NCBI GenBank assembly: GCA_964593065.1
Contig: CAZQGO010000009.1
Span: 20,702-84,701, forward strand
Direction of reading: 5' to 3'
Length of the DNA: 64,000 nt
Source of the DNA: an uncultured bacterium
Lineage (GTDB): Bacteria > Oederibacteriota > JAAXVQ01
Below are positions 1 through 41,680 of the stretch, piece by piece (position 1 is the first letter of the stretch; each line of letters starts with the position of its first letter). The position numbers and the translations under genes are program-made. The notes below the pieces were generated by a model. It saw only the letters and a program-made list of their open reading frames with translations. It was not told the DNA's origin and ran no database searches.

Positions 1-1
1 C

Positions 2-3000
2 AGGCAGCCGCGGGAGCGGCGCACGGTGGTGGATTCCAGCGGAGCCGAGACCGTCTATCCCGGACTGGATCCGGTGAAGGTTGCGGCGCGCATGCTCGGC
101 CTGGAAGGCCGGACCGTGGTGGACACCTACGATTTCCTGTCCGACGCGGACATCAAAACCTTCCTGGCCTTAGGCTGGGATGTGCGCGCCATGGGCAAGG
201 GGCATATCGAGGTGCTGGCCGGCCAGCTGACGCTCGCAGAGAGAATCGCCGCCACCGAGGAACTGCTCGCGGAACTGACGAATTTGGCCCGGCCGCAAAC
301 CCTGTCCGCCCTGCAGGCGCAGGGCTCGTCCTTAGACGCCGCGGCCCTGGACCGGGCACGGAGAACGGCGGAGGCGAAACTCGCCTACCTCAAAGCCGAA
401 GTCACCGGCAGCCCCGACCGCAACCGCCTGCAGACCGCCTACGAGCTGGCCAAAACCGGGCAGGAGCTGCGCTACGCCCATGCGGAAGAGCAGGCCGCCC
501 TGCGCGCCAAGCAGGTGTACCTGAACTACCAGCAGGAGCATTACCGCCTGCTGGACGAGGCCGAACCGGCCCGTGTGCAATCCCATCTGCGCCAGGTCAG
601 GCGGTTCTACACGCGTTATCGCCGGCTCTGGGCCGAGCAGCAGCGCCGGACGCATGCCCGCCTGGCCGAGATCGCGATCGCGCCCCGCCAGCGCGTGATC
701 CTGCGCACACTGCAGCAGATCGCCGAATTCGCAACGGCGCTGGCCGGCGTTCTGCAGCGCCGGACCGCAGCCGTGCCCGAGGAACGCCTGCAGGGCCGGG
801 CCCTGCGGCGGGAGCTGTCCGGCACCAAGTATCTGCAGGACCAGCTGCAGCGAACCCTGGACGATCTGGACCGCATGTACGTGGAGCTGCTGGACCCCGA
901 GGAACGCGCGGCCATGCAGCAAGAGTTGCGGCGGCTGCGGCGGCGACCCCGCCTGGCCCTGTCCGGGCGGTCCACGCGCACCGGACAGGTGGACCTGACC
1001 CAGCTGACCGCGGCCGAAAGCATGCGCGGCTGGAAGATCGAGATCCAGGACCGCGTTCACGCCGATTGGGAGCTCGAAAAACAGAGGATCCGCGACCTGC
1101 AGGACGGCGGCGTCTACGTGATTCTGCGGGACAAGCTCGTGGACGCCGCCGGCCGCATGCTGGAATTCGTGCCCTTCACGGTGTTCGAACAGGGGCCGGA
1201 CGGCAAACTCGTCAAGCGCGAGGATCCCCAGGGCTTCTCGCGGGCGCGCACCATCAAGTGGCGCAAGGATGCCGAGGGCGGGAAGCACCGCGCCCTCAAT
1301 CCCCTGTGGGCCAAATTCATGGTCAAGGTTCCGCTGAACCTGGCCCCGGTGGCTTCCGAGGATTTCACTCCCGAAATGTACCCCAATTTCGACAAGCTGC
1401 CCCTGGAAACGCGCGAATGGCTGGTGCGCAACGTATTCGGGCAGGGCAAAATCCTGTCCACCGTGGCCGGAGAGCCCCAGGCCCGGTTTTACCTCCTGAT
1501 GGACGTCAACCTCGATCCCCTCACCTGGGCCGCGGGCCGCGGCGGAATTTTGATGGACGCCGAAACCGACGAGCCGGTGGTGGTCACCACCGAGGAGGGG
1601 GCCGAGCAGGTCGTCATGCTTAAGGCCTCGGGCCCGCACCAGGCCATGGATCCGGCCCTGCTGGACGTGGACACCAGCCGGGTGGTGCAGGGCGGGCGCG
1701 TGCTGCACGATCTCTACACCGTGCACGCCCCGGACGGCGCGGTGCTGGGACAGATCGAGACCTATGACCGGAAGGTCGTGGAATTCCCGGTGGGCGAGGG
1801 CTATACGGCCCACGTGCGCGCCGGGCGGATCGAAACGCTCCGGGACCCGCAAAACCGGGAGGTGCTTTTCGGCACGGAACCGGCCGCCGACGGCTGGATC
1901 CAGTTGCACGTGCGGGCCACGGGGGAGAAGGTGGGCCGGGTGCGCATGCGCGAGGGCGAAGTTACGGAATGCCTGCTGCCCGGCGGATACCGCGTCCAGA
2001 TCCGGCAGGGACGCATTGCGGCCATTCAGAACGAAGCGGGCCGCGACCAGCTGGCCAGGATGCAGGTGCGGGGCGAACAGGTGACCCGGACCAGCAAATC
2101 CTCCCTGGGCCAGATCCTCGGCCACACCACCGAGGCCGACCCGGAATCCATACTGAAAAAGGAGGGCACGCCGGAGTACCGGGCCGGCCGGACCTCGCGC
2201 GCGCTGTTCCGGGCGGTTTTCCGCTACGCGCAGAACGGGCGGCACGAACTGCAGCAGCTGTGGCGGAGCGTACCCTCCACGGCGCGCCTGGGCTGGATGC
2301 TGCTGGGCGACGAGAGGGATTTTGATCCGCAGCAAATGACGCGCGTCATGGCGTGGAACGCGGCCGAAATCCTCGGCCAGACCGAAGCCTGCGTGCATAT
2401 CGCCCCCAACCCGGATAATATTTATTCCACGGAATACTACACCGACGAGGACAGCCAGATCCCCCTCTACAACGAGCGCGATCCTTACGGCGCTTTCTTC
2501 AAGTACTTCGGCTACGCCCTGCAGCTGATCTACTGGGATTTCGAAGGCGCCCGGACGGACAACTACGACACCATCGACCTGTCCGTCCTGCCGATCTGGA
2601 TTGACGCTTTCTTAGACCACCTGCTGGAAATCCGGCAGGGCGGTCGGCCGCTGGTGCGCAATCCCGAAGCGTTCGAACGTTTCCGGCGCCGGGCGCGCGG
2701 CGTCACCCGGGAAAACCTGGAAAGCTTTGAAAACGACTTCATGCAGACCTTGTGGAACGAATACCTGGCCCATCACGTCCTGCGCAACCGCCTGGAACGC
2801 GGGTATGAGCCGACCCTGGAAAGCACTTTTTCCAGCAGCGAGGCCAAGGGCCGCTTCGACCCCAACGACCGCGACAAGGCCGAACGTTTCCTACAAAACC
2901 AGCGGGAGCTGCTGGAAGCCGCCCGCCGCCTGAGCGCGGAGGAGGGATACGCCCCCCTGTACCTGCGGGGCGTGCCCTTCAATTACGACGAGGCCTTCGC

Positions 3001-6000
3001 CGAGCTGGACCGGAAAATGCAGCACGCGGCCCTGCTGGCCTCGCAACCGCCCCGGAAAAACCGCTACGCCGATATTTACCAGTTAAGCTTCTATCCTCCC
3101 CTGCGCCCCAATGTCTATTCCATCCTGGATTTCGCCGGCATCCGGCAGGGGCTCGCGAAAATGCGCCTGGTCATTTCGCAGGCCCTGCCGGCCGTGCTGC
3201 GGGAAAAGGTGGACGTGAAACTGCAGGACGTGCTGGGTTCGACCGAAACCCGGATCCGGGACATGTTCTACGACGGCCTGGAGAGTTTCGGCGCCTTAAA
3301 CTCGGAATGGGCCGAGTTTCCCCTGGTGCCGGCTTACTTTTCGGCCTGGCTGCGCCATGCCGGCCCGGCCGAAATCACCACGGCCGCCTCGGCGGAAGAC
3401 GTGTATTACCTTCTGCAGAGCGATTATCAGATGACCTGCCAGAATCTGACGCGCCTTTCCTCCCTGGGGCCCGTTGAATTCCAACCGCATCCCGTCCGTT
3501 CGGGGGAAGCCTTGTATTTTTATTACCGGCGCGGCAACCGGACCCATTACGTCAAGGTTGACCTGGCCAGCCGGCAAATCCTGCCGGTGAACGCCGAAAC
3601 CTATCGACAGGAGACCGCAGGCCGGGCGGCCCGGCCGGCGGAAACCGCAGCGCGCGCAGGACTGGCGGCCAACCTCCTGGCCCGCGAGGGTTTCCAGGCC
3701 GCGGCCGGGTACGGCGCGCTCACCGCGGGAATCGCGGGCATCCTGGCGGCCGCAGGAGCCGGCAGCCTGCTGGCCAACCTGACGCCGGTGGGGGTCGTGG
3801 TGGGTTTCTTGAGCGGGCGGGCCGCGCTCACGGCCCTGGCCGAATGGCTCATCCACGGCCAGCTGCTGCGCGGCAGCCCCGGCGAAGAGGGAGTGGTACA
3901 CGTCCGGGCGGACGGGTCCTTAGGCTTCCATCTCACTCCCGCTTCCCGTTTCACGCCGCTCAGGCGCCTGGTGGCCTACGGGCTGGGCTACCCCGTGGCG
4001 GCGGTGGTCGTGGCCACCGCGGCCTGGCATGAGTTCCTTCATACATCTATCCGTTCGGAAATCGTCGTGTACGGGCTGGAATCCCTGACCGTCCTGTCCC
4101 TGTCCGCGGTGGCCTTGCATGGCTTGTGGTTCGCGGCCGCGGCGGCCCTGGCGGGATTCGCGGTCATCCTGGTTCCCCGCGTCCTTGGCTGGACCAGCCG
4201 GGCTCTACGCCGGCGCGTTCAGCAGCAGGCGCTTCGGGCGCGCCTGGCCCGCGCGCAGCATACACTGCAGCGCTACGGGCAGCCGTTGTCGCTGCTGGCT
4301 CATTGGGACGAACTCACCCCCTCCCAGCAGGACCATCTGCTGACACAAATCGAGCAAACGGACTGGCAGGAAGCCGGCGACCTCTACGAGCGGCTCGTGC
4401 GCCGGGGCGAACAGCCCAAATTGGATGTGTCGCGAACCGAACCGGCACCCGTCATCACGGACCGGCGGGAGGCGGCCCTGGAAGCGGGCGAGGAAATCCT
4501 GTCCTGGGGCGCGGAAACGGGACGAGCCCGTTTTGCCTGCGTCCTGCCCTCCGGAGGCGGCGGAACGGGCTTGGGCTTCACGGATGAGACCGGCGCACTC
4601 CTGCCTAAAGGGACTTTTCCCGCCACGCCTTTGAGCAACGAGAGCATGTACCTCTCGCTGGTCCGGAAAAACCTGGCCGCGGCCCGGGCCCACGGCCATC
4701 AGAAAATGTACCCCTTTGTCATCATGGTCAACGAGGAAACCAACGAGGCGGTGCGGGCGCATTTCCGGAACTCCGACCTCTGGGACCAAGTCAAGGACCG
4801 CCTGCTTTTCGTCAATCAGAAAATGCTGCCGCAACTCGACCCGGAAACGGGCCAGGCTTTCCTGAACGGCCAGGACAGCCTCAGCCTCGGCGGCTGCGGT
4901 GCCGGAGACATGCTGGATTACGTGCTCGACGGAAAGCAGGGAGCCGAGGGGCTGGTATGGTCCGAGCAAGCCGGGGATTTCGTGCCGCAAAACGTGGTGG
5001 GCTGGCTGGAAGGTTTCGGCGTGGAATACACCCAGTATATGAACGTGGACAACCTCCTGACGCCGATCGCGGATCCGTATTTCCTCGGCGAGCATGCCCT
5101 GAGCCGCGACCCGGAGCAGGAACGCGGCGGCTGGGCCCACCGCTCCATCGGCATGATCCCCAAGCGCCTGTGGGACGAAGAAGGCCAGACCTGGCGCGAC
5201 CGCCTCGGCAATGTCGTCGAGGCGGACGTGGAGACAGGACCGGGCCGCAGGGAACGCCGCCCGGTGCCCGTGGATTACGGCCGGATGCGGGCGGTGGACG
5301 CCATGTGTTCCTGGGGCAGCCCGAGCTTCGTGCTGCTGACCCTGCCGAGCCTGCAGGGAGCCAGGAGAATTCCTTGGGCGGCCATCACCGGGAAAACCGA
5401 CTGGGACGAAACCGGGCGGAAGCGGCCCATCGTTAAATTCGAGCGCAAGCCCGACAAGCCGGGTTACGGGGTGTTGTTCGGATTCAATGAGGCGGACACG
5501 TTCGCGGCCATCAAAAAGCCGGACGGCACCCAGCCCGTGGAAACGCCCGCCTCCTCCAAACGCATGCAGTCCGATTTCTGGAAGCGCAAAATTCGGGCTG
5601 CCTGGCCGCAGTTAACCTTGGACGATGCCGCCTTCGTTGAGCTGCCCTGGGAGGCGGCCTACATGACGCCCGGCCAACTGCGGGCGGCCCTGGAAGCCAC
5701 CGACTTCGCGCGCCGGCAGCAGGAGCATCCGGGCGAGGGGATCCTGGTCCGGGCGGATCGCGCCGCCTTTGGCCGGTTCAGTCCGGCGGTTCAAGTCCTG
5801 CCCAATCCCCTGCGCGACCTGCAATCGATGGCGGCGGAGCAGTCGGAACCGAATCTGATCGGGGCGATGATGAGGCCCTGGATCGCTCGCGCCCTGGCGG
5901 GAAAACTGAATCCCTCGGATACCAGTGCGGTTCTCATGCGCCTGAACAGCCTGGACCCGAAGTTCATTAATTTTGATCAGGGACAGCGCCTGCTGAAATC

Positions 6001-9000: not shown

Positions 9001-12000
9001 GCAGCCAGCGATCCAGGCCGAGGCTCCGGCCGGCGAAACCACGCAGGCGCGGCTGCTGCTGGCCGTGCTGGTCCTCGGGATCGGCGCGGGCCTGGCGGGT
9101 GTTCTGGGCTTGGTGGTCGGCTTGACCGTCTCCCCGGTCCTCCTCTGGGTACTGGCCGGCGCCGGCTTAGTCGTTACGCTCGGCGTGCTGATCGCGCAGA
9201 CCGGCCGGACCACGGCCCGCGTGCCCGGGCGCCGGAATTTCCTGATCACGGGCAGCCTGTCGGTCCTGGCTCTGGTGCTCGCTGCCTGCGGCCTGCCCAT
9301 CCCGGCCACGGCGACGCCCGGTCCGGTCCAGCCAACACCGGAAATGCCCACCATCGAACCGACCTGGACCTACCCGCCGAGTCCGACGCCTCCGCCCACC
9401 CTGGAAGGCAAATTGCTGGCGGAATGGAACCACCGTAAATTCGTGCCGGAAAGAAATTTCTGGCTCGTGTACCCCGATACGCCCCCGGTGGAGGCCCTCG
9501 CCCCCAGTCAGGACCATGCCGAAATGATGGTGTACCAGCGCGGGGAGAGGACCGTTTACCTGATCCCCAACGGCCATTTATCCAACCGGGCTTTGGAACT
9601 GGAGCAGCAACACATCCTGGACGTGACCAACCCAGAGAATACGTCCGTGCTGAACAAGTTCCAGGCAGGCAAGGTCATGCTGGGCATCGAGGGCCTGAAC
9701 CCCAGCGCCCTGGTGGGAGGGTGGAACGCCGGCCCGGCGGTCTGGTCCCTGGTCGAGAAAACGAAGGATGCGGAACCCATCACCATCGCGGATCCCACCA
9801 TCGCCTATTCCGACCCCCTGGTCCTGAGCGCTCTCCAGGGGGAAGGCTTCCGCACCGTCGACATCGCCCTGCAGTTCGTGCTGGCCTTCCTGGAGGCCCC
9901 GAACGGCGGGCCGGTCGAGAACCTGGAACAGTTCAACGCCCTGTCCGAGCAGGACAGCGTGGGCACGATCTACACCGTCACAGACATCTTCATGGCCTAT
10001 GACCGCGAGTTCTCGGCCTCGCCGGACCTCCGGTCCGTGTACGAGCAGCACCTGGCCGAGGTCCGGCAAACGAATCCGGACCAGCAGGATACCTTCGCCG
10101 AACGCCGGGAATGGCTGCTGGCCTATTTGCGGCAGAACGTGCTGGATTACCTGGGGGCGTCTCCGGAAGCCCGGGCCCAACAGGCGCAGGACGTGGCCAG
10201 GATCGGCACAGAAAAGTTCGTGCAGAGCAACAAGCTGTCCAGGAAATTCTTCGAAGTGATCCTGGAACAGGTCCCGGCGGACAATGACCTCATCCTGGTT
10301 TATGGATTCCTGCACCAGGAGGCTTTCGAACCGCTCCTCATCGAGCAAGGGTATCAAAGGACACAGTACTACCCTGACCAGAATCCCAATCCCAGGAGCG
10401 AAGTGGACGGCACGCTGGCGCGCCTGCAGCCGGCGGACCAGACCCGGTCGCGGAGTTACCGGACAGCCCGCAGAGTGGAGGCCGTGCTCTCGAGCCTGAC
10501 CTCGCCCTTCCGGGGAGGCATCATGCCCTGGCTGCGAGGCCTGGTGGTCCGCCTCTCGGGCGGCAGGATCACCCCGCGCGCCTACGACCGTTTCATCGCC
10601 TTCTGGCTGGAGAACGTGCTGTCCCTGACCGCCGGCGGCCTGGTGGCCGCGGCCGGAGCGGCGGTGCTGGCCGTGGCGACCGGGGGCGCATTCGCGTTTC
10701 CGGCGACGGCGGCGTATTTCCTGGCATGGCCCCTCTTCTTCCTGTTGCACCTCGTGCCCGGACGGGAAGGGCAGCGGGCTCCGCCCCTGAACCTGGCCTT
10801 GGCGGGCGTGATCGCTGTTGTCAACCTCGCACTGGTTTTCACACCCCTGTCGTGGCCGCTGCTTCTCCTGTCGGGCGTACTGGTCCACCTGGCCGCGAAT
10901 GTGGCGGCCGCCGTTTTCTTCCGCGCGCGGGCCCTGCGGACCTGGACCCTGCCCAACGGGGAGAGGGTGAGCCTGCAGGCCGCGGACCAAGCCTTCCTGC
11001 AACAACACGCGGACGAGATCCTGCCCCTGCTGGACCCGGAAACCTTCGGCGCCTGGAACCGGGAAAAACTGGCGGCCGGGGAAGAGGGCTATGACGGCCG
11101 GCCGCACTACGGCAAATTCCAACACAGCCTGGCCATCACGGATTCATCCGGCAGGGTGATCGCCCTGGCCCTGGCGTATGAACGCGGGTGGAAGGAATAC
11201 CAGGAACTCGGTTCCGACAGCCTGTATCTCAACGTGCTGGCCGTGGCCCCGGATTACCAAGGCCTGGGACTCGGCACTCTGCTCACGCGCTCGGTCATCG
11301 AGCGCTTCCGGCGCAGCCGCTTCCTGCATTTCCTCAACCGGCCGCTGGCCGTGTCCCTGCAATCCCACGTACCGGAGGCGCAAAGGCTTTTTGAGCGCAT
11401 GGGATTCCAGGCCGTAGGAGAAAAAAGCTATCCAGCCAGGAACCTCGTGGACCGGGTGTATCTCTACCATGAGACCGGGCCGGCCTGGATCGACGTCCAG
11501 CAGCGGCCCCGTCCCCTGGGAACCGTCTTGGATCCGGCGGGGGAGAAATACCGGCAGGCGCTTTTCGCCCTGTCGCAGCAATTGCAGCGTTTCCGGGAAA
11601 TCCCGCAGGCCTCCGAACGGCAAGACCTGAAGCTGCGCCTGGTGGCGGCGCAGCGGGCGCTGCCGGCCCGGGCCCTGACCGAGCTGAACGCGGCCCGTGA
11701 GGGATTCCGCGCCGGCCGGCTCTCGGTGGAGGACTTGGCCGCCGTATTCCTGCGCACCACCGAACTCGGCCTGCTGGGCGAGACCGGTGCCTGGACCCGG
11801 CGCGACGGCACGACCCTGGACCGCCGCGAGCACGTGCTCGAGGATGCGCGAGCTTTGGATGCTTTGCTCCAGGGAAGGCCGGTCTACCTCGGCTTGGACC
11901 CATCCGAGGCCGAACGCCTGAACGCTCTGGCCATGCGCATCCGCTTGAATCCCGAACTCCGCGAGGACCTGGCCCTGGCGCTGATCCTGCACGATTATGG

Positions 12001-15000
12001 TTTCCTGAACGGAAATCAGGATTACTTCCATACGCCCGAGGCCGACCACGCCCGTGAGGGCGCGGAGCTGGCGCGGCCCGTGCTGGCGGCCCTCGGACTT
12101 CCCGCTGCGCGCATTGATTTCATTTCGGAATTGATCGCCCGTCACGATTGGCTGAGCAACATTGCCGACGGCACCAACCGGCCGACGCTGGTCTCCCAAT
12201 ACGGGCCGCGCCTGGCGCCGGCGCATTTGCGCCAGGAAACGGCGGACCTGGTTCGGCGCTGGCAACAGTCCGGACGCCTAGCCCGGCCGGAAGCAGTGGA
12301 CGCTCTGGCAGAGAATTACCTTGCGGCCCTGGCCCTGCTGGGAGTGTCCGATATCTTCGGTTCGGGCGACCGCGCTGTTGACCAGGGCGTGGTGCAGGCC
12401 GCCGTCGATATCTCCGGCGTTGCCCGCCTGGAGGAAGCCGCGTACCGGCAGCAGATCCCGGAGGGCTTTGATCCGTCCGCCCGCGTGACCGTGGCGGGCG
12501 TGGCCATGGATGTGGACGCCACCCTGACCCGCAACCAGACTTTGCCGCCGGAAGGCCTTAATCTCAAGCAGGTCCTGCGGGCCCTGCGCGCCGGCAAGCG
12601 CGTGCTCTTAAACAGCGGCAGCCCGATGCTGCCAGCAGAGAAGGTCAGGGTGTACCGCTCAGAGGATCCCGGGGATTACGAAGAGGTGACCTTCCATTAT
12701 GAGCGGGAAGCCCTGGAGGAAAGGATCGTCAGGGTCCTGCAGGCGGAAATGATCGCCAGCGGCGACGCCGGCAAGCTGCCCAACCTGGAAGTGCAGGGTA
12801 TTTCCGGCGTGGAACACGTTACCTTCGACGCGCAGGGCCAGTATGTCTATCGGCTCGATGAAAGCCTCACCGTCGAGCCGGCGGCCCAACGGGACATCGG
12901 CAAGGCCCTGGCTGTGGGCTACATGCAAGTCTTGGGTCAAAAGCGCGGCGTGGACTTTTCGGCGGCCATCGCGGAGGTGCGGTCGGCGAAAAACCTTCCC
13001 GAGGTTCTGGAGCATTTCAACGGCGCCGTGGCCGGCCATGCTCAGGTGAAATTCCAGCCTTTCAATTCCGAGATCGTCCTCGTGGGTGAGGACGGGCAGG
13101 TGGACTGCAACCTGGCGCTGGCCGCGGCCCGCGAGGAGATCCGGCAGCAGGCGTACGCGGTCGACGAGGATAAATATTTCCCCTCCGCCGGAATGCTGTT
13201 CTTGAAGTTCAGCCGGATCAAGAAGAGCAGCGCCGTCGCAGCCTGGATGGACCGCGGGCGGGCTTCGGGAGCCTATCTCACCCTGGGGGATTCAGCCACC
13301 GACACCTTCCTGTGGGAGATCCGGCGGCCGAATTTCTTCCGCGTGTTCCTGGGGACGGCGCAGACCTTGCGTGCCCATCCGGGAGTCGTGGTGGCGCGCA
13401 GCGAGGAAGGCCGGGACAACGTCCGCCAGGAAGGCACCGGCCAAGCCCTGCAGCATTTCCTGGACGCCGAGGAGCAGGGTTTGGCTTATCGTGATTTGCC
13501 GTATTTCGACAACCGCTGGTCCTTAAGCGACCTGATGTCCCGGGGCCTGGCGCTGTTCCCGCGCTGGCAGAACGCTCGCGCCGCAGCCTTTTCGAGCCGG
13601 CGCATCCTGCTGCAGGCCTCGCGTTCCTGGCTGCTGCGCCTGCCCGCGTTTCTGGTGACCGCCTGGATCCTGGCGGCCGAAATTCTGTCGCCGCTGGCGG
13701 GGAAGTACACGGTGGAAACCTACCAGCGGGAGGGACTTGCGGTCTACCGCTTCACCGACCTGCGGGCGGATACCTCCTTCGATATCGTGCCCGGCTACGC
13801 CGCCAAAATCATCTCCTTTAAGGCCCAGGGGCGCGAGATCCTCCATTGCGACAGCATCAAGGCCTCGGGCGGTATCGAGGTCATGTATCCCTACATCGAC
13901 CGCGTGCAGGGCAACCGCTTTAGCTACCAGGGGCGCACCGTGGACCTGGGTGACGACGAACTGGTGCGGACCGGCCTGACCAAAAAGGACGGCTCGGGTA
14001 CGGTCTACCACGGCATGGCCCGCAGGCTGCCCTGGAAGGTGGAGGCCGCCGGCCTCGACCGCCGGGGCATCTACGTGCGCGTCTCGCTGGCCAACGCGGA
14101 CCAGCCCGAGATCGCGCGGCGCTTCGGCCGGGGAAAAGCCTTCCTGACCTATCACCTAAGCGGTGCTGAACTGACCAGCGACATCCGCCTGCGCAACCGC
14201 TCCTTAGCCTCCACGGGCAGCCATCCCTGGATCGCGCGCGGCCAAGGCGCCTGGCGCCTGCTCGTGCCCGCCCGGCGCGAGGTCGTGGCGGAAAACATGA
14301 TCCCCACCGGCGAACGCCGCGAGCTGGCCGGCACGCCGCTCGATTTGCGCGCCTTCCGGGATTCGGACCGCAACCGCCACGCCATCCTGGAAGGTTTGGA
14401 CCGTCGTCCCAACGGGGAAGCCGTGTCATACGCCTACAATGCCACGGACGGCACGCTCGTGGAGATCGCGCAGAGCGAAGGCCTGCCCTTCGTGGTGGTG
14501 TGGGACAAGGAGGAGAAATTCTTCGCCCTTGAGCCCGTGTCCTCGCCTCCGGACGCGCTCAACGACGCGGACGGGCGGCGGGGGCTCTTGCCCATCACCC
14601 AGAGGAACTACCATGCCCGGGTCTCTTACCGCGTGCGGCGGGTGGACCCGGACCAGGCAGCGGCCCTGCCGACAGAGAACGCGGCGGTGCAGGTCCGACC
14701 GGCAACGCCCGCGCACGCCTTCCGCGCCCTGACCGGCTACGCGGCCGGCCTCGTGTCCGTCCTGGGCGCGGCCGCCCAGTACGGCGTCTTCCGCCAGCTG
14801 GGCGCGACCCAGCCCGCGCTGGCGCCTTTCGTGACCGCGGCGGGTCTCTTCTTCGGGGGGCTGCTGGCCCTCGGCGCCACGGATTTCTTCATCACGGCCT
14901 GGGCCGTGCAGCAAGTCGAGTATGAGAAACTCTTGGACCAGCGCTCCCGGACACAGACCGTGGGGATTTTCAGGAAATTCCTGTTATGGTGGCAAGCGCT

Positions 15001-17281
15001 GGGGGCGGTGGTCGCCCGGGCCAACGGCTGGCGCGATACGGCCGCTTTAAAAATCCTCGAGGGCCATCCCCGGTACACTGTAGCCCGGGAACTGCTGGAA
15101 AAGCACGAGGAGTTTCCAAACGAATTGGCGGGCCTGATCGGCATGCACCCGGGCGTGCACCTGGCCTTGGTGGCGGGCAGCCTGCTGCTGGCCCTCATGG
15201 CCGGGGTGCTGCTCGCTTCCGCGGGTTGGTCCCTTACCGTGATCCTGCTTCTGGCCGGGACCGCCGGCTTCCTCCTGCTGTCCGAGTGGCTCCGCCAGTC
15301 GCAATGGCGGACCGCCGAAACCGAGGAGCAGGTGCGTGCCTCGCTGGCCGGCTACCAGCCGAATACCGGCGTGCTGCACAGCGGCCGGAAATTCCGCCTG
15401 GCCCAGAAGGTGTATCACGCCGTGCGCACCGACCCGGTCCTGCGGGCCTTGCGAACGGCCGGCGGCCTGACTGTGCGCGACGTGGCCGTACGCTTTGGGC
15501 TTAAAACGCGGGAGACCAGGCAGATGCTGGATTACCTTTCGGCCGACCACGGCCATCCCGAAATCATGGGCATCAGGCGCCTGGGGACGGGCCTGTACGC
15601 CTATCAAGCCGTCAGGCCCGAGGCCGACGAGAGCCACCGTGCAGCCGCGGAAGCGGTGTTCGCCGTGCTGCAGCGGAACTGGGGGATGAGATTCCTATCC
15701 CGCGTCATCGGTTTCGATGCGGCGGGCTTGGCGCGGCACTTAAGTCATACCGGCATGACCCGGGAGCAGGCCCAGCAAGCCCTGGAGTACCTGGCCTCGG
15801 AAAAAGCCTGGGGCGGCCGGCTGGCCGGCGTCTACCACCGCCTCGGCTTCTTCCAATATCAGCCGCTGCCGGAATATGCCTGGGGCGAAGAGACGCCCAA
15901 GTTGGCCCGCATGGTCCACAGCGTCATCCGGGACCGTCAATCCCTCCGCTACAGGGCCGCGCTGGGGCAGCTGACGGCCGAAGACCTGGTCCGCGAACTC
16001 CACTTCGGAGTGCAGGCGGCGCAGCGCGCCCTGGCCTACCTGGTGTCCGACCAGGCCGCCGGCCAGGGCCTGGGTGGCATCAGCTCCGAGGTCAAGAACG
16101 GCCGCCGCATCTACCGCTGGTCCCCGGGACAAACCGAGACCCGCGCCGAGCCGGCGCCGCGGGCCCCGGCGGGTGCGCCCGAAAAAGCCGCAGGCCGGTC
16201 CGGCCTGAGATTTGCAGCCAACGAAACTCTCCGCGGCGAACGCAACTGGGCGGGAAAAGTTCTGGACAACTTCCTGGGCGTCGTGCTCTTCGGGCGCGAG
16301 GCCGATCCGGCAGCCCATTCGCTGTCCCGCGGTCTGGCGGCGGGCAACGTTCCGCTGTTCCGGGCCAGCGGCTCGCTGTTCGCGGCCCTGCTGGGCTTGT
16401 CCTGGCTGGCGCGCCGGCCCGCGGCGGCGACGGCGGACCAAGCCGCGGAACTGGATCGCGTCGTGCTGGCGGCGCAGGTGGATGACGTCGCCGCGGCCGT
16501 CTACGCCCGGTACGGAGCAGGGGATTTTGTGCGGCCGAAAACCGAACTTCTGCCCCTGTCGGACCTGAGCCCCTGGCGGAGGCTATTCCATCTCCTGGGA
16601 CACGCGCAACGGGATCCGCAAACCGGCGAGCCGGTAATTTTCGTTCCCGACACGCTTCTGCGCGGCGGCGTGCGTCCGGGCCTGCAGGCGGAGTTGTTGC
16701 GGCTCATGGTCGTCCATCAGCTGCGAAAATTTTACGCCCAAAGCCGCCGAGCCGCCCGGTTGTCCGGATCGCCGGTACGAGTGCCCATCTGGGACCGTGT
16801 GATGAGTCGTCTCCGGATGAGAAGCGATCCCCGCGGCTATCTGACCCGAGTGCTGCAGGGCGATGCCTCCCCGCTTGCGCGGGAACTGCTGCAACAAGAA
16901 ACCGGGCGGGAGAGTCCTGCCGCGTCCGCTTTCCTGGACTGGGTCCATCATCCCGAACCGGAACGCCTGGAAGCCTGGGTGGCGGAGATGGTCCGGAGCA
17001 TCAACGTATCGCCCGCTCCGGGTCAGAGCCTGGCGACTTTATGCACTCTGAGCAGCCGCCTGCCGGCCCTCGAGGGAATTCGGGTCGGGGAGTGGTTGAC
17101 ACGGCCACCGGGTACGGCCTCTGGGGCCATCGTTCTGCCGGGAATTCTCTCCCGGCCTGCCCTGAAGTCGTGGCTGCGCACGCTGGAAGACCGATTGCAG
17201 GGGCTGCCGCTCAAGATGAATCCGCAGCCCCTTTCTCCCCGCGGGCCTCGTTCCCAGCGCTCCAGCGCGCGGGCGGCGTGA
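2..17281 (+). CDS. Giant multidomain membrane-associated protein 1 (5'-truncated, at least 5,759 aa)
   Basis: ORF track 26..17281. The frame is also open from position 2 (AGG CAG CCG CGG...), so the real start is upstream of the window. GC3-rich coding pattern; recognisable domains (UDP-sugar pyrophosphorylase-like, 2 GNAT, HD, HAD, aldose 1-epimerase) and several TM clusters. Confidence 0.93.
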   Translation, partial: RQPRERRTVVDSSGAETVYPGLDPVKVAARMLGLEGRTVVDTYDFLSDADIKTFLALGWDVRAMGKGHIEVLAGQLTLAERIAATEELLAELTNLARPQTLSALQAQGSSLDAAALDRARRTAEAKLAYLKAEVTGSPDRNRLQTAYELAKTGQELRYAHAEEQAALRAKQVYLNYQQEHYRLLDEAEPARVQSHLRQVRRFYTRYRRLWAEQQRRTHARLAEIAIAPRQRVILRTLQQIAEFATALAGVLQRRTAAVPEERLQGRALRRELSGTKYLQDQLQRTLDDLDRMYVELLDPEERAAMQQELRRLRRRPRLALSGRSTRTGQVDLTQLTAAESMRGWKIEIQDRVHADWELEKQRIRDLQDGGVYVILRDKLVDAAGRMLEFVPFTVFEQGPDGKLVKREDPQGFSRARTIKWRKDAEGGKHRALNPLWAKFMVKVPLNLAPVASEDFTPEMYPNFDKLPLETREWLVRNVFGQGKILSTVAGEPQARFYLLMDVNLDPLTWAAGRGGILMDAETDEPVVVTTEEGAEQVVMLKASGPHQAMDPALLDVDTSRVVQGGRVLHDLYTVHAPDGAVLGQIETYDRKVVEFPVGEGYTAHVRAGRIETLRDPQNREVLFGTEPAADGWIQLHVRATGEKVGRVRMREGEVTECLLPGGYRVQIRQGRIAAIQNEAGRDQLARMQVRGEQVTRTSKSSLGQILGHTTEADPESILKKEGTPEYRAGRTSRALFRAVFRYAQNGRHELQQLWRSVPSTARLGWMLLGDERDFDPQQMTRVMAWNAAEILGQTEACVHIAPNPDNIYSTEYYTDEDSQIPLYNERDPYGAFFKYFGYALQLIYWDFEGARTDNYDTIDLSVLPIWIDAFLDHLLEIRQGGRPLVRNPEAFERFRRRARGVTRENLESFENDFMQTLWNEYLAHHVLRNRLERGYEPTLESTFSSSEAKGRFDPNDRDKAERFLQNQRELLEAARRLSAEEGYAPLYLRGVPFNYDEAFAELDRKMQHAALLASQPPRKNRYADIYQLSFYPPLRPNVYSILDFAGIRQGLAKMRLVISQALPAVLREKVDVKLQDVLGSTETRIRDMFYDGLESFGALNSEWAEFPLVPAYFSAWLRHAGPAEITTAASAEDVYYLLQSDYQMTCQNLTRLSSLGPVEFQPHPVRSGEALYFYYRRGNRTHYVKVDLASRQILPVNAETYRQETAGRAARPAETAARAGLAANLLAREGFQAAAGYGALTAGIAGILAAAGAGSLLANLTPVGVVVGFLSGRAALTALAEWLIHGQLLRGSPGEEGVVHVRADGSLGFHLTPASRFTPLRRLVAYGLGYPVAAVVVATAAWHEFLHTSIRSEIVVYGLESLTVLSLSAVALHGLWFAAAAALAGFAVILVPRVLGWTSRALRRRVQQQALRARLARAQHTLQRYGQPLSLLAHWDELTPSQQDHLLTQIEQTDWQEAGDLYERLVRRGEQPKLDVSRTEPAPVITDRREAALEAGEEILSWGAETGRARFACVLPSGGGGTGLGFTDETGALLPKGTFPATPLSNESMYLSLVRKNLAAARAHGHQKMYPFVIMVNEETNEAVRAHFRNSDLWDQVKDRLLFVNQKMLPQLDPETGQAFLNGQDSLSLGGCGAGDMLDYVLDGKQGAEGLVWSEQAGDFVPQNVVGWLEGFGVEYTQYMNVDNLLTPIADPYFLGEHALSRDPEQERGGWAHRSIGMIPKRLWDEEGQTWRDRLGNVVEADVETGPGRRERRPVPVDYGRMRAVDAMCSWGSPSFVLLTLPSLQGARRIPWAAITGKTDWDETGRKRPIVKFERKPDKPGYGVLFGFNEADTFAAIKKPDGTQPVETPASSKRMQSDFWKRKIRAAWPQLTLDDAAFVELPWEAAYMTPGQLRAALEATDFARRQQEHPGEGILVRADRAAFGRFSPAVQVLPNPLRDLQSMAAEQSEPNLIGAMMRPWIARALAGKLNPSDTSAVLMRLNSLDPKFINFDQGQRLLKSARAFRPIATQAQRQGLFSWIRLLAKLQAENPAWAKAVALFDHERSGAYVDYLRGVGEQIRRFPVEELLGPELLAAIAATSPGGRLPASLTVVDDSDADSLERQLNLRDHPEAESGLPLAARLTLINPYTRTVRMVLLVGPMDRLRKAMRTIAEMEEKFGGWIYGLGQVALDFTIKPFNGEDGEVDSSTMYLDEDLQGRGVGRALSEGRRRLLIHLVPGAVIRSKVLHPAALINLVHHFGAEIDWEEPRVFKSYWPPVLSDLGLLHEPLPDQEISTAQAALHQAKAESQTPELNDAEFLYDRIRGLAQQIARDPAQYPHLAATHGWKHKELPAKMQGKEQDWQSVAHFLYSMILDRLYVRGRVPDVEEEAPPAAPPAPKALGGIMDWLKAPVMKVFGIDSATYDRRVAWWLENGLVYGLALPGVLLALAFGAPLVSTLGAGYVLAWAAFARLHYRLPWAGRAPPAHRVAALVISLVNISLLAAVLFAPWLFPVVFLSSFVVHGLVNAGFLERAAETFRRTKALGEDAIARIRARSTDLAGGFAFTGLLALPITVLVLVLRGVGGLVIPGILPWIAVPAGVVLVSWALVSLAPPSASAGRPAAPAGGVSRRQVLQLLALSPVVAGALILAACTPQPTAAPTQAWTQELRTRLFVPTQQYVADYLASPERVADPNVDHAGLVSYTDPQTGRRIFLVPNSHASKRAQTLIREHILPEIGDRDPNWLFALEGMSADIDWSRMSAHLPEYSDLLEKAAAGGDQVFNPLVGNYDPRVLVQVASGTRVNLLGVVLVYNDAEAEPGVGGHLTADSIRAISPERLSDLAMFEAGVLLQAFPDHERNSEAFRAWLAGLPAETREQFGPDTERNFRRGYLAQIFLNSLVLQLQTDPALLNSNVAEMNDQMTAAADLLSMDLFRAALAAEPTDRNVVVVFGALHRDAFEQTLRNAGFTQDPGEIPDEHGTSQLPLTPYVLRLGMPAGGPAAWGALGLLGTGRAGAAGEAAGAGQPAIQAEAPAGETTQARLLLAVLVLGIGAGLAGVLGLVVGLTVSPVLLWVLAGAGLVVTLGVLIAQTGRTTARVPGRRNFLITGSLSVLALVLAACGLPIPATATPGPVQPTPEMPTIEPTWTYPPSPTPPPTLEGKLLAEWNHRKFVPERNFWLVYPDTPPVEALAPSQDHAEMMVYQRGERTVYLIPNGHLSNRALELEQQHILDVTNPENTSVLNKFQAGKVMLGIEGLNPSALVGGWNAGPAVWSLVEKTKDAEPITIADPTIAYSDPLVLSALQGEGFRTVDIALQFVLAFLEAPNGGPVENLEQFNALSEQDSVGTIYTVTDIFMAYDREFSASPDLRSVYEQHLAEVRQTNPDQQDTFAERREWLLAYLRQNVLDYLGASPEARAQQAQDVARIGTEKFVQSNKLSRKFFEVILEQVPADNDLILVYGFLHQEAFEPLLIEQGYQRTQYYPDQNPNPRSEVDGTLARLQPADQTRSRSYRTARRVEAVLSSLTSPFRGGIMPWLRGLVVRLSGGRITPRAYDRFIAFWLENVLSLTAGGLVAAAGAAVLAVATGGAFAFPATAAYFLAWPLFFLLHLVPGREGQRAPPLNLALAGVIAVVNLALVFTPLSWPLLLLSGVLVHLAANVAAAVFFRARALRTWTLPNGERVSLQAADQAFLQQHADEILPLLDPETFGAWNREKLAAGEEGYDGRPHYGKFQHSLAITDSSGRVIALALAYERGWKEYQELGSDSLYLNVLAVAPDYQGLGLGTLLTRSVIERFRRSRFLHFLNRPLAVSLQSHVPEAQRLFERMGFQAVGEKSYPARNLVDRVYLYHETGPAWIDVQQRPRPLGTVLDPAGEKYRQALFALSQQLQRFREIPQASERQDLKLRLVAAQRALPARALTELNAAREGFRAGRLSVEDLAAVFLRTTELGLLGETGAWTRRDGTTLDRREHVLEDARALDALLQGRPVYLGLDPSEAERLNALAMRIRLNPELREDLALALILHDYGFLNGNQDYFHTPEADHAREGAELARPVLAALGLPAARIDFISELIARHDWLSNIADGTNRPTLVSQYGPRLAPAHLRQETADLVRRWQQSGRLARPEAVDALAENYLAALALLGVSDIFGSGDRAVDQGVVQAAVDISGVARLEEAAYRQQIPEGFDPSARVTVAGVAMDVDATLTRNQTLPPEGLNLKQVLRALRAGKRVLLNSGSPMLPAEKVRVYRSEDPGDYEEVTFHYEREALEERIVRVLQAEMIASGDAGKLPNLEVQGISGVEHVTFDAQGQYVYRLDESLTVEPAAQRDIGKALAVGYMQVLGQKRGVDFSAAIAEVRSAKNLPEVLEHFNGAVAGHAQVKFQPFNSEIVLVGEDGQVDCNLALAAAREEIRQQAYAVDEDKYFPSAGMLFLKFSRIKKSSAVAAWMDRGRASGAYLTLGDSATDTFLWEIRRPNFFRVFLGTAQTLRAHPGVVVARSEEGRDNVRQEGTGQALQHFLDAEEQGLAYRDLPYFDNRWSLSDLMSRGLALFPRWQNARAAAFSSRRILLQASRSWLLRLPAFLVTAWILAAEILSPLAGKYTVETYQREGLAVYRFTDLRADTSFDIVPGYAAKIISFKAQGREILHCDSIKASGGIEVMYPYIDRVQGNRFSYQGRTVDLGDDELVRTGLTKKDGSGTVYHGMARRLPWKVEAAGLDRRGIYVRVSLANADQPEIARRFGRGKAFLTYHLSGAELTSDIRLRNRSLASTGSHPWIARGQGAWRLLVPARREVVAENMIPTGERRELAGTPLDLRAFRDSDRNRHAILEGLDRRPNGEAVSYAYNATDGTLVEIAQSEGLPFVVVWDKEEKFFALEPVSSPPDALNDADGRRGLLPITQRNYHARVSYRVRRVDPDQAAALPTENAAVQVRPATPAHAFRALTGYAAGLVSVLGAAAQYGVFRQLGATQPALAPFVTAAGLFFGGLLALGATDFFITAWAVQQVEYEKLLDQRSRTQTVGIFRKFLLWWQALGAVVARANGWRDTAALKILEGHPRYTVARELLEKHEEFPNELAGLIGMHPGVHLALVAGSLLLALMAGVLLASAGWSLTVILLLAGTAGFLLLSEWLRQSQWRTAETEEQVRASLAGYQPNTGVLHSGRKFRLAQKVYHAVRTDPVLRALRTAGGLTVRDVAVRFGLKTRETRQMLDYLSADHGHPEIMGIRRLGTGLYAYQAVRPEADESHRAAAEAVFAVLQRNWGMRFLSRVIGFDAAGLARHLSHTGMTREQAQQALEYLASEKAWGGRLAGVYHRLGFFQYQPLPEYAWGEETPKLARMVHSVIRDRQSLRYRAALGQLTAEDLVRELHFGVQAAQRALAYLVSDQAAGQGLGGISSEVKNGRRIYRWSPGQTETRAEPAPRAPAGAPEKAAGRSGLRFAANETLRGERNWAGKVLDNFLGVVLFGREADPAAHSLSRGLAAGNVPLFRASGSLFAALLGLSWLARRPAAATADQAAELDRVVLAAQVDDVAAAVYARYGAGDFVRPKTELLPLSDLSPWRRLFHLLGHAQRDPQTGEPVIFVPDTLLRGGVRPGLQAELLRLMVVHQLRKFYAQSRRAARLSGSPVRVPIWDRVMSRLRMRSDPRGYLTRVLQGDASPLARELLQQETGRESPAASAFLDWVHHPEPERLEAWVAEMVRSINVSPAPGQSLATLCTLSSRLPALEGIRVGEWLTRPPGTASGAIVLPGILSRPALKSWLRTLEDRLQGLPLKMNPQPLSPRGPRSQRSSARAA
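1520..2470 (+). other. Domain in giant protein 1: SelO/protein-kinase-like (possible AMPylase/pseudokinase)
   Basis: Ordered motifs GRGGIL, MLKASG, RTSRAL, RSVPSTARLG, HIAPNPDN and YTDED parallel SelO GRAILL, QLKGAG, PTTRAL, RVAPSHIRFG, HGVMNTDN and IDYG; there is a large beta-rich insertion. Confidence 0.4.
4265..5700 (+). other. Domain in giant protein 1: UDP-sugar (UAP/UGPase-type) pyrophosphorylase-like
   Basis: GQ..LLAHWDELTPSQQDHLLTQI N-cap, SGGGGTGLG..PKG, FVNQKMLP, NVDNLL..DPYFLG, KFE, FAAIK. Confidence 0.8.
6480..6730 (+). other. Domain in giant protein 1: GNAT acetyltransferase-like 1
   Basis: Motif A-like MYLDEDLQGRGVGRAL. Confidence 0.55.
7139..7530 (+). other. Domain in giant protein 1: 4-TM CPBP/Abi-like module, copy 1
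   Basis: GGIM..YDR..AWWLEN (E 7232), FARLH (H 7355), RAPP, HGLVN (7502-7516); paralogous to 10508..10920. Confidence 0.55.
7820..8835 (+). other. Internal twin-arginine/lipobox segment followed by ChaN/TraB/EreA-like domain, copy 1
   Basis: SRRQVL-hydrophobic-LAAC (Cys 7889-7891), Pro/Thr linker, then NSH..FALEG..VVFGALH. Confidence 0.6.
9227..10375 (+). other. Internal twin-arginine/lipobox segment followed by ChaN/TraB/EreA-like domain, copy 2
   Basis: GRRNFL-hydrophobic-LAAC (Cys 9287-9289), long Pro/Thr linker, then NGH..LGIEG..VYGFLH. Confidence 0.6.
10508..10920 (+). other. Domain in giant protein 1: 4-TM CPBP/Abi-like module, copy 2
   Basis: GGIM..YDR..AFWLEN (E 10610), FFLLH (H 10748), RAPP, HLAAN (10886-10900). 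Confidence 0.55.
10960..11470 (+). other. Domain in giant protein 1: GNAT acetyltransferase 2
   Basis: LYLNVLAVAPDYQGLGLGTLL and AQRLFERMGF. Confidence 0.8.
11820..12375 (+). other. Domain in giant protein 1: HD-superfamily phosphohydrolase
   Basis: EH..ALILHDYG..DHAREGAELA..LIARHD..SD. Confidence 0.75.
12490..13470 (+). other. Domain in giant protein 1: HAD-superfamily hydrolase
   Basis: Motif I MDVDATL, motif II LNSG, K, motif IV LGDSATD. Confidence 0.75.
13700..14640 (+). other. Domain in giant protein 1: aldose 1-epimerase/galactose mutarotase-like
   Basis: MYPYIDRV..FSYQG, HGMAR, GSHPW, MIPTGE, FALEP. Confidence 0.85.
15398..16120 (+). repeat. Three tandem ~75-80 aa winged-helix-like repeats in giant protein 1
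   Basis: Each repeat: helix (LAQKVYHAV / AAEAVFAVL / LARMVHSVI), HTH-like segment ending LDYLS / LEYLA / LAYLV, then a Gly-rich hairpin ending YAYQ / FQYQ / YRWS. Confidence 0.6.
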
Positions 17282-17380
17282 AGCTTTCCATGAAGAGCGT
17301 GGCAGGTTTGGCCATCCGGACCCGGCGCGCCCCATCTTTGCACCTCAGAACGTCCCGGGCCGGGGATGCAAATTTTAACC

Positions 17381-17409
17381 TTGACAAATTCCCGGATTTT
17401 CACTAAAGT
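17381..17409 (+). promoter_or_regulatory. Sigma70-type promoter of rplM-rpsI
   Basis: TTGACA-17 nt-TAAAGT. Confidence 0.8.
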
Positions 17410-25905: not shown

Positions 25906-26079
25906 GGCAATAACGGGCGGATTCTCCGCCCGGCAGGGAACATACGGTTTCCGGCGGGTGCCCCCCACCACGACTCGGTTCGCTCCCCACGAATCCGAGA
26001 TACCCGCCGGATAAGCTGGGCGGGGCGGGCTTGGCGGCCCGCCCCGGCCCGAAACCTTCGCAAGGCAGGAGGCGACTAC

Positions 26080-27165: not shown

Positions 27166-27215
27166 CGCGCGGCGAGCCGGGCCGGCGGCCCGCCTCGGCC
27201 GGAGAGGAGCAGGAC

Positions 27216-27635
27216 ATGAAGAAACTTGCCGTGATCGGAACGCGGCCGGAACGCCGGGCCAAACCGCGGGCCCGGGTCAGCCTGCAGGCGGAGTACCGCG
27301 TGCTGACCCTGCGGGACTTGGCGCGGGGCCGGAAACGCCTGGCGCGGCTGTCCGCGCGGGTGAAGAACCTGGGAGCCGGCGGCGTGCTGCTGCGGGTCCA
27401 CCGGCGCTTGGCCCGCCGGTCCGTGCTGTCCCTGGCCCTGGCCCTGCCGGAGCGGCAGGCGCCGGTCCGGAGCCTGGCCGAGGTCAAACACGTGCGGGAG
27501 GTCCTGGCCCGGGCTCATTACCCCTATGCCGTGGGCCTGGAGTTTTTGGCCATTTCACCGGGGGACACTGCGGCCGTGCGCCGTTTCGTGTCCCGGCGGG
27601 CAGGCGAAACGCCCGGGAACTCCGGGAAGCGCTGA
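27216..27635 (+). CDS. Stand-alone PilZ-domain protein (139 aa)
   Basis: Own RBS (GGAGAGGAG) and ATG 27216; ERRAKPR (RxxxR), NLGAGG (D/NxSxxG-like) and C-terminal VGLEF; it is the 3' part of track ORF 26031..27635. Confidence 0.82.
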   Translation: MKKLAVIGTRPERRAKPRARVSLQAEYRVLTLRDLARGRKRLARLSARVKNLGAGGVLLRVHRRLARRSVLSLALALPERQAPVRSLAEVKHVREVLARAHYPYAVGLEFLAISPGDTAAVRRFVSRRAGETPGNSGKR

Positions 27636-41068: not shown

Positions 41069-41102
41069 TCCCCGGGCCCCATGCGCCGCCGGCAAATTTC
41101 AC

Positions 41103-41131
41103 TTGCATGTTGCGGGTTCTTCCGATATAAA
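41103..41131 (+). promoter_or_regulatory. tRNA promoter
   Basis: TTGCAT-17 nt-TATAAA, 15 nt upstream of the tRNA. Confidence 0.65.
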
Positions 41132-41146
41132 CGAGAGAACTTTTTC

Positions 41147-41222
41147 GTCCCCATCGTCTAGTGGCCTAGGACATCGCTCTTTCAAGGCGATGACACGGGT
41201 TCGAATCCCGTTGGGGACGCCA
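41147..41222 (+). tRNA. tRNA-Glu (TTC)
   Basis: 76 nt; GTCCCCA/TGGGGAC acceptor stem, TCGCT-CTTTCAA-GGCGA anticodon arm, GTTCGAATC T-loop, encoded CCA. Confidence 0.97.
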
Positions 41223-41409: not shown

Positions 41410-41423
41410 AATTAAATATATTT

Positions 41424-41638: not shown

Positions 41639-41680
41639 GAATTACGGTACTGTCACCATGGTGAATGCTGTATTATTGCT

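Follow-up and report, generated by a model that had tools for sequence, protein, structure and literature searches.

A giant multi-enzyme membrane gene belongs to a many-copy mosaic family that is largely confined, in the genomes searched, to a single candidate-phylum order

The subject of this analysis is a 64,000-nucleotide stretch of bacterial DNA (the window; positions 20702-84701 of contig C9, GenBank CAZQGO010000009.1, in the 2.8-Mb genome G000) and the giant gene with which it opens. On the forward strand, window positions 2 to 17281 form a single stop-free frame of 5,759 codons plus a stop, open at the 5′ end and with a GC content of 0.65-0.68 throughout. In the contig, the same frame runs upstream to base 3, for a total of at least 12,659 codons; the window thus holds the C-terminal 45% of one real gene. 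At the composition of this genome a stop is expected about every 37 codons, and the log10 probability of 5,759 stop-free codons is approximately −69. The initial annotation, made from the window alone, was correct in describing one uninterrupted frame and understated its size. It had looked to the upstream contig for the N-terminus; the frame could be followed there, with the N-terminus still lying off the contig and therefore not seen. No contig end in the genome overlaps the start of C9 by 15 to 200 bases. The long frame is interrupted by a scaffold gap of 100 N (C9:6386-6485). The 10,498 codons 3′ of the gap are unbroken; 5′ of it, the giant frame contains no stops over 2,127 codons, versus 22 and 46 in the other two frames. 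The gap length of 100 N is arbitrary, and the assignment of these first 2,127 codons to the same gene is unproven.

Assembled DNA from other samples supports the frame in the window. The stretch is present in 11 salt-marsh metagenome runs, 6 of which contain at least half of its words. Contigs from four runs were compared with window positions 1-17400 (X1 to X4; X1 is possibly the source sample, and the remaining runs may share one sampling campaign). All 30 bins were covered in each run, with no insertions and no deletions. Although the stretch is nowhere covered end to end by one contig, each junction is bridged by overlapping pieces in at least one run (Table 1). The listed variants occupy 33 sites, with synonymous changes at 20, nonsynonymous changes at 13, and a new stop at none. 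A separate 2,668-residue gene call, P0002, corresponds to the C-terminal part of the gene and carries a V-to-I change at window position 9857. Because this difference from the window is a variant seen in all four runs, we take P0002 to come from other DNA of the same population. Two contig joints (8752/9858 and 13120/14837) were set aside as repeat noise, as their sides comprised only 20 to 22 letters. Over the window part, the frame is thus one gene and not the product of misassembly or of frameshift-joined genes, the possibility that the initial annotation had named as its own refutation.

A sugar theme spans the whole frame. Upstream of the window, Pfam scans identified a cytidylate kinase, a GH2 glycosidase, a further GNAT, a weak P-loop match, and a full UDP-glucose/GDP-mannose dehydrogenase (UGDH), whose UDPG_MGDP_dh_N, central, and C domains lie just outside the window, with the last ending at C9:20696. 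Within the window, the theme continues with a UAP/AGX-type UDP-sugar pyrophosphorylase, a HAD-superfamily phosphatase, and an aldose 1-epimerase (mutarotase). The pyrophosphorylase (residues 1422 to 1696, counted from the first codon in the window) matched 10 solved UAP/AGX chains at E values of ≤8e-5, the best being 1vm8 at 5e-12, and its GGxGTxLG..PKG and VDNxL..ADPxFxG loops align with those of 1vm8. The initial call of such an enzyme therefore stands, even though Pfam UDPGP (PF01704) gave no match at an E value of ≤10 and none when the family was searched for across the genome. In the order's 14 other genomes, the search for a relative of the cassette was negative. For the HAD region (residues 4147 to 4527), a profile matched 1wr8 at 3.7e-5. 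Across motifs I (DxDxT), II, III (K), and IV (GDxxxD), residues D24, T28, S59, G60, K262, G283, D284, and D288 are invariant in 10 sequences and D26 is nearly so, in agreement with the original assignment. The aldose 1-epimerase, likewise confirmed, scored 35.3 bits (residues 4601 to 4858) against a PF01263 cutoff of 27, and a profile of six relatives matched seven solved mutarotase-like chains (best, 1.2e-10). H143, H214, and E317, which we take to be the catalytic residues, are invariant in those six sequences. The catalytic motifs of the pyrophosphorylase, HAD, and mutarotase units all look intact at the sequence level.

Other enzyme assignments were supported to a lesser degree. Of two GNAT units named initially, one (residues 3672 to 3802) scored 36.4 bits against the PF00583 cutoff of 20.7. 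The gene has another copy farther upstream, with 43.8% identity to this one, and both copies follow a membrane cassette. The second, near residues 2183 to 2206, remains a weak candidate, with the match confined to the acetyl coenzyme A loop (Q/RxxGxG/A): all 20 solved-chain matches listed are GNATs, at E values of 0.065 to 2.5, and Pfam E values were 0.028 to 0.045 in three of nine aligned members. The HD unit (residues 3975 to 4053) is borderline, scoring 22.8 bits against a cutoff of 22 on a 321-residue piece and 19.6 bits on a 2,000-residue piece; the region contains an H...HD doublet (ILHDYG). The winged helix-turn-helix (wHTH)-like unit is weaker still, with MarR_2 at 25.4 bits falling under its cutoff of 27. 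The initial annotation had also remarked on what the gene lacks, and this held: a single 40-nt array is the only tandem repeat detected in the giant gene, and no NRPS/PKS family appeared in any Pfam scan of the whole frame.

Two of the 10 domain types named initially, SelO and ChaN/TraB, failed the profile searches that had been set beforehand as a check on the domain calls. The first was probably prompted by a motif pair in the orphan region S1 (residues 330 to 1214), HxxxNxDN (nt 2396-2419) and DPYGxFF (nt 2480-2500), which by eye presumably resembles the SelO motif. The SelO model (PF02696) found nothing in the whole genome, yet it matched in 6 of 14 control genomes. S1 gave no Pfam match at an E value of ≤10 and no relative in the 14 genomes of the order, and a protein atlas returned nothing usable. 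The two supposed ChaN/TraB-like units, S3 and S4 (residues 2631 to 3012 and 3097 to 3500), similarly had no Pfam match at an E value of ≤10; PF04187 and PF18950 found nothing in the genome, and PF01963 matched only elsewhere in it. S3 and S4 match each other (2.9e-11 and 6.3e-12; 26% identity) and are tandem paralogues. A profile built from both and run against 1,835,955,588 proteins retrieved only the same protein and one repeat artifact, and neither domain had a detectable relative in the 14 other genomes of the order. Atlas leads for S4 all scored below 0.9 (DUF5694, 0.82; a cluster with 13% TraB_PrgY_gumN, 0.81), and a word search with S4 among proteins of 217 to 692 residues gave no match. 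Alignment of S3 and S4 to the N-terminal head of the gene family described below was not significant (hhalign E values of 0.01 and 0.068).

The hydrophobic blocks reported between the units correspond to seven clusters by Kyte-Doolittle analysis (residues 1239-1398, 2412-2633, 3013-3106, 3538-3640, 4544-4567, 4938-4964, and 5045-5098); helices were taken from Kyte-Doolittle windows, and helix counts inside clusters are uncertain. Two kinds of membrane module are conserved beyond this gene. The first (residues 1215 to 1400) carries an HExxH motif, and in an alignment of six sequences H129, E130, H133, E139, Y143, and E146 are invariant. A 49% identical copy occurs in a giant frame on contig C1, and further copies occur in 4 of the 14 other genomes of the order. 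The module matched no Pfam family below an E value of 0.085 (0/6 sequences), and among solved chains it retrieved no protease, only one unrelated chain (MtrE subunit 8q3v_E; E value, 0.0042). Assignment as a site-2 protease (M50) was considered in view of the invariant HExxH and rejected on these negative results.

The second module is a 135-residue, four-helix cassette that occurs five times in the gene and also in giant frames on contigs C1, C25 (twice), and C44. An alignment of 25 copies, drawn from G000 and from other genomes, shows no variation at E38, F80, and H84, and Y29, D30, N39, W77, R93, H130, and N134 are nearly invariant (H130 and N134 at ≥90%). An AlphaFold2 model (pLDDT, 92.3; pTM, 0.84) shows an amphipathic helix followed by four membrane helices, and fold searches with it returned only background, with no clear solved relative. 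The motif order E...FxxxH...HxxxN is one that we take to recall the CPBP/Rce1 intramembrane proteases. Membership in that family is not claimed, as Pfam and NCBIfam each matched none of the 25 copies despite the agreement in motif order. We also observed that the unit formed by this cassette and the GNAT behind it is duplicated in the gene (window residues 3504 to 3833 and full-frame residues 4856 to 5279), with the cassettes 49% and the GNATs 44% identical, which hints that the two parts may work together. Finally, two internal segments that combine a twin arginine, a hydrophobic stretch, and L-A-A-C look like lipoprotein signal peptides kept inside a chain. Coordinates of all features are collected in Table 1.

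Table 1. Features of the giant gene within the window and contig pieces that bridge it (window coordinates)
Feature	Position	Strand	Basis or remark
Giant gene, 3′ part	2..17281	+	Stop-free frame; colinear contigs of four runs without indels; variants 20 synonymous/13 nonsynonymous/0 stop
UDP-glucose/GDP-mannose dehydrogenase unit, end	2..196	+	Extent inside the window inferred
S1 orphan region	989..3643	+	No family assigned
Membrane module with HExxH-x5-E...Y..E (WHEFLH, nt 4025-4042)	3644..4201	+	Alignment of 6
UAP/AGX-type UDP-sugar pyrophosphorylase core	4265..5089	+	Solved-chain matches
Cassette common to the C3 giant and giants of genome G003; probable divergent GNAT (LQGRGVGRAL, nt 6584-6613)	6143..7171	+	Subthreshold
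Four-helix membrane cassette, copy 4 of 5	7142..7525	+	Alignment of 25
Internal twin arginine, hydrophobic stretch, and L-A-A-C (lipobox-like), before S3	7823..7891	+	Read from sequence; K/R flanks suggest C-terminal side outside
S3, first tandem orphan paralogue	7892..9037	+	Matches S4
Second internal twin arginine, hydrophobic stretch, and L-A-A-C, before S4	9227..9289	+	Read from sequence
S4, second orphan paralogue	9290..10501	+	Matches S3
Four-helix membrane cassette, copy 5	10499..10936	+	Alignment of 25; structure model
GNAT acetyltransferase	11015..11407	+	Pfam PF00583
HD phosphohydrolase domain	11924..12160	+	Pfam PF01966, borderline
HAD-superfamily phosphatase cassette (DVDAT, nt 12506-12529; GDSATD, nt 13283-13303)	12440..13582	+	Profile and motifs
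Single membrane helix between HAD and epimerase	13631..13687	+	Hydropathy; K/R counts
Mutarotase (aldose 1-epimerase) cassette; predicted side, periplasmic	13700..14740	+	Pfam; solved chains; sidedness from K/R counts
Three-helix membrane cluster	14816..15280	+	Hydropathy; K/R counts
Three tandem wHTH-like repeats	15293..16201	+	Repeats by eye; MarR_2 in two stretches, subthreshold
Family tail domain	16202..17278	+	Common to the C terminus of the complete 11,927-residue giant on C3
Bridging contig pieces	X3 1-6948; X1 3006-8372; X4 7688-10213; X3 8976-11263; X3 11245-13088; X1 11644-17400		

A topology can be proposed from these features. The four-helix cassette has seven K/R residues on one face and none on the other, and both of its ends are therefore predicted to lie inside. 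Because the GNAT follows a cassette with inside ends, it is predicted to be cytoplasmic. A single helix precedes the mutarotase and three helices follow, so that the HAD unit and the wHTH/tail region would lie inside and the mutarotase outside. S3 is also predicted to be outside.

The giant gene is one of about ten paralogous giants in this genome, in which 33 frames of at least 1,500 residues total 315.7 kb (11.2% of the DNA), and among the members reported so far from the genome it is the longest. It belongs to a many-copy family of mosaic inner-membrane proteins built as a head, a variable body, and a tail and found almost only in one order. The complete arrangement is represented by an 11,927-residue frame on contig C3, which carries both head and tail. 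The tail of the giant gene in the window (residues 5400 to 5759) is 39% identical over 314 residues to the end of the C3 frame, and a profile of 10 tail sequences (hmmsearch) matched the C-terminal ends of the giants on C3 and C9 and, weakly, of the one on C1. The same profile retrieved no solved relative at an E value of ≤1. The membrane cassettes are shared with the C1 giant, which bears a head, and heads occupy approximately residues 40 to 480 of nine other frames in G000. By structure model and fold search, the head has an Ere/ChaN-like fold, its closest known folds being those of the erythromycin esterase/ChaN/HopBA1 group (6xcq, 2g5g, 5t09, 2qgm, and 2rad). A fold search was needed for this assignment, as a head sequence profile run against solved chains returned only pannexin, at an E value of 0.9. 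As a separate observation, the last residues of the C9, C3, and C1 giants are basic and alike (..RSSARAA, ..RLSAQAA, and ..TVGRSA), and this shared end may be a short terminal signal.

We searched for the head in 99 genomes that represent the phylum. It was present in each of the order's 14 other genomes, with 6 to at least 17 matches apiece, and elsewhere in the phylum only 1 of 84 genomes gave a match, which was marginal (E value, 9.5e-4). Head-bearing frames reach 13,678 residues, including in assemblies of seven to eight contigs. The body cassettes of the giant gene matched 13 of the 14 other genomes of the order and none of 26 genomes of other families; as each cassette matches separately and in a different order, the bodies appear to have been reshuffled. 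The record of one relative from the order names it as candidate division FCPU426. More distant head-bearing proteins are named Firestonebacteria, Omnitrophica, Endomicrobia, or Elusimicrobia, and in those named Candidatus Omnitrophica the identity to the head is 26 to 32%. Behind these distant heads lie varied enzymes, including UDPGP, HAD, NUDIX, and methyltransferase domains, and in one case SecA_DEAD plus SecY. A word search with residues 1 to 5000 against proteins of 3,167 to 10,079 residues was blank; this reflects the method, since the genome searches did find relatives.

Two further giant loci in the genome are recorded here. A second giant frame lies at the far end of the window (54001-63999) and continues to C9:86647; it totals 3,986 codons and contains a 100-N gap (C9:86510-86609). 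It starts with an Ere/ChaN-like head (window 54103-55410) and has a weak FBPase_glpX match at residues 3150 to 3250. On contig C8, a 1,278-codon head-bearing frame (83973-87806, reverse strand) overlaps the start of a 9,665-codon frame (54988-83982, reverse strand) by about 10 bases in another reading frame. This arrangement may reflect a broken gene, a frameshift, or a sequencing error where head and body join, and immediately upstream there is another head-like fragment (87810-89111).

The giant gene ends 85 bases before the frame that holds rplM, with no terminator-like site between them. Directly downstream (window 17366-38380), rplM is followed by a division and cell-wall (dcw) cluster comprising mraZ, an ftsI-like penicillin-binding protein gene with PASTA domains, murE, murF, murD, ftsW, murG, murC, ddl, ftsQ, ftsA, ftsZ, and an amidase gene. 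In the expected place of mraY, between murF and murD, the frame at 26031-27635 gives only a weak PilZ match; an overlapping 361-codon frame (26080-27165) is the likelier mraY. Farther downstream, window positions 40000-54000 have a GC content of 0.45 to 0.56, versus 0.65 elsewhere, and may represent acquired DNA. This stretch includes a GH5 cellulase (47715-49850) that carries CBM6/35 and a sorting domain of the Por_Secre_tail type, a GH52 enzyme (51182-53311), and an OEP/MFS/HlyD efflux set (42888-46884, reverse strand).

As to function, we tentatively favor a reading in which the product of the giant gene works in cis as a membrane-tethered, multi-enzyme scaffold that would make, salvage, or remodel envelope or extracellular glycans. 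Its cytoplasmic blocks would make or modify activated sugars and transfer groups; these would include the UDP-glucose dehydrogenase, cytidylate kinase, and GNAT upstream of the window and the UAP-type pyrophosphorylase, GNAT, HD, and HAD units within it. Such blocks would alternate with family-specific membrane modules and with predicted periplasmic domains (S3 and the mutarotase). The initial annotation had suggested either an effector or enzyme-delivery scaffold or a membrane-tethered metabolon; the evidence leans toward the metabolon because the catalytic motifs look intact, nucleotide-sugar content is central, and the cofactor-dependent enzymes are predicted to be cytoplasmic. The data show the gene, its size, the identity of most domains, and the family with its distribution, from which we infer the sidedness, the joint action of the enzymes, and their role in glycan metabolism; taken as a whole this reading is plausible but falls short of probable.

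Several points weigh against the scaffold reading. The scaffold gap leaves the membership of the first 2,127 codons uncertain, and the N-terminus lies beyond the contig. Approximately 2,000 residues of the window part (S1, S3, S4, and residues 1700 to 2050) have no assignable function. The topology, and with it the predicted sidedness of the blocks, was drawn from Kyte-Doolittle hydropathy and K/R counts alone. For S4 the indications conflict, as the leader resembling a twin-arginine and lipobox segment would place it outside and the very basic stretch before the next cassette would place it inside. No RNA run was among the listed runs that hold the stretch. Finally, because the paralogous giants differ in their enzymes, the sugar theme may be a chance assortment instead of a pathway.

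The main rival to the scaffold reading is a self-processing polyprotein, in which the membrane modules of the chain itself, perhaps aided by host signal peptidases acting at the RR...LAAC segments, would cut it into membrane-anchored and soluble enzymes. Both modules keep invariant polar residues inside helices (in 25 and 6 sequences), a pattern typical of catalytic or metal sites, and the orders E...FxxxH...HxxxN and HExxH presumably recall those of intramembrane proteases. The two in-frame twin-arginine and lipobox-like segments directly precede S3 and S4, and cutting would resolve the conflict over the sidedness of S4. Cleavage of giant proteins has also been the subject of speculation for Omnitrophota, according to the accessible portion of the preprint by West-Roberts et al. 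(2023, bioRxiv 10.1101/2023.11.21.568195). Against these points, neither module matched any protease family in Pfam, and the four-helix cassette matched none in NCBIfam. A candidate junction motif, R-S-E-x-R, is absent from the giant gene and occurs once in 105,247 residues of giants, versus 2.2 occurrences expected by shuffling. We therefore regard self-processing as unlikely. Its most specific form is slightly less likely again: two new intramembrane hydrolase modules (the four-helix E/H/H/N cassette, present five times, and the HExxH-x5-E module), perhaps joined by host lipoprotein processing, would cut a membrane-inserted chain exceeding 12,000 residues into individual enzymes, which would occur at a fixed stoichiometry and occupy both membrane faces. 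The two conserved modules, with their catalytic-looking residues, nonetheless offer a concrete handle on whether such giants are cut.

A second rival, of a kind already proposed for the giants of Omnitrophota, holds that a predatory or parasitic cell uses the protein as a weapon on its surface or as a carrier of effectors, with enzymes that act on the envelope or cytoplasm of another cell. The relatives of the head in Candidatus Omnitrophica proteins are compatible with this idea, as is the devotion of 11% of a small genome to such genes, whose copies are numerous and diverge fast. The accessible text of West-Roberts et al. (2023, 10.1101/2023.11.21.568195) also lists GH2, GNAT, and sugar enzymes among the domains of the Archaeovorins, the Omnitrophota giants. 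A weapon fits poorly, however, with the fact that most of the recognizable enzymes need cytoplasmic cofactors (UTP, NAD, acetyl coenzyme A, and ATP) and are predicted to be cytoplasmic. Pfam scans and a repeat search found no SecA_DEAD, dockerin, adhesin repeat, or pore-forming domain, and nothing suggests a reduced parasite, given a genome that is 100% complete by marker genes and a window that contains the dcw cluster. We consider this role doubtful. Last, it is highly improbable that the frame is an artifact of misassembly or of neighboring genes fused through sequencing errors: the genome is a metagenome bin of 51 contigs with a gap inside the long frame, many contigs terminate within giant frames, and depth was only about 6 to 10× in the runs compared, but colinear contigs without indels, the match of P0002 from other DNA of the population, the skew of variants to synonymous sites, a random-origin probability of about 1e-69, and equally long frames with the same cassettes in near-complete relatives (9,859 to 12,551 residues in assemblies of only seven to eight contigs) largely refute this explanation for the window part.

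Giant genes are rare in bacteria and have so far been discussed mainly for Omnitrophota. Here, the 2.8-Mb genome of another candidate phylum spends approximately 11% of its DNA on giant frames, and the family is restricted to one order, with 6 to at least 17 copies per genome and cassettes reshuffled between copies. To this the giant gene adds a clear enzymatic theme, with nucleotide-sugar enzymes whose motifs look intact and which could be assayed as isolated domains, together with several orphan domains of 400 to 900 residues. A chain that works as a unit would take enzyme tethering to an extreme; a chain that is cut would represent a polyprotein strategy unusual for cellular life.

Among single enzymes, the closest comparison is with the UAP1/AGX-type UDP-N-acetylhexosamine pyrophosphorylases (1vm8, 1jv1, and 6z2f). 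The likeness extends over an alignment of 275 residues that takes in the helical part at the N-terminus as well as the loops for nucleotide and sugar, whereas here the unit is embedded in a giant membrane protein and receives no score from Pfam UDPGP.

For the gene as a whole, the comparison is with long and giant proteins of other lineages. In the accessible portion of Nielsen and Lui (2026), 94% of 916 long proteins have membrane helices or signal peptides, and a 2025 paper on PVC lineages, in the part available, merely cites giant-protein ideas. Judged by titles and abstract openings, the papers listed for FCPU426 included no work on its giant genes. Searches combining giant proteins with erythromycin esterase found no paper, and those combining Firestonebacteria with giant proteins found no description of this family. 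FCPU426 is likewise unmentioned in the accessible text of West-Roberts et al. (2023, bioRxiv 10.1101/2023.11.21.568195), where the Omnitrophota giants are described as having many membrane helices, GNATs, sugar enzymes, SecA DEAD domains, and HEAT repeats.

The initial annotation had drawn a link to giant proteins of Omnitrophota and related lineages, and this stands in part: the head has relatives in proteins named Candidatus Omnitrophica, but the host is not an Omnitrophota member, and the SecA_DEAD and HEAT marks are absent. Our comparison with the Archaeovorins, which belong to another phylum, was made with their published descriptions and not with their sequences. Going by the accessible descriptions, most Archaeovorins carry a divergent SecA DEAD domain, HEAT is their commonest domain, and they exceed 30,000 residues. 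The giant gene described here has at least 12,659 codons, with its N-terminus off the contig; Pfam scans of the whole giant frame found no SecA DEAD domain and no HEAT family at an E value of ≤0.1. Across the genome, SecA_DEAD (PF07517) matched only the ordinary secA on contig C4, plus a 15-bit match on C25. Because it is without SecA_DEAD and HEAT, we do not class the giant gene as an Archaeovorin. It nevertheless shares with them, as far as they are described, a single frame of great length, numerous membrane helices spread along it, embedded GNAT and sugar enzymes, and long unannotated stretches. We thus regard the giant gene as a variant of the same general kind.

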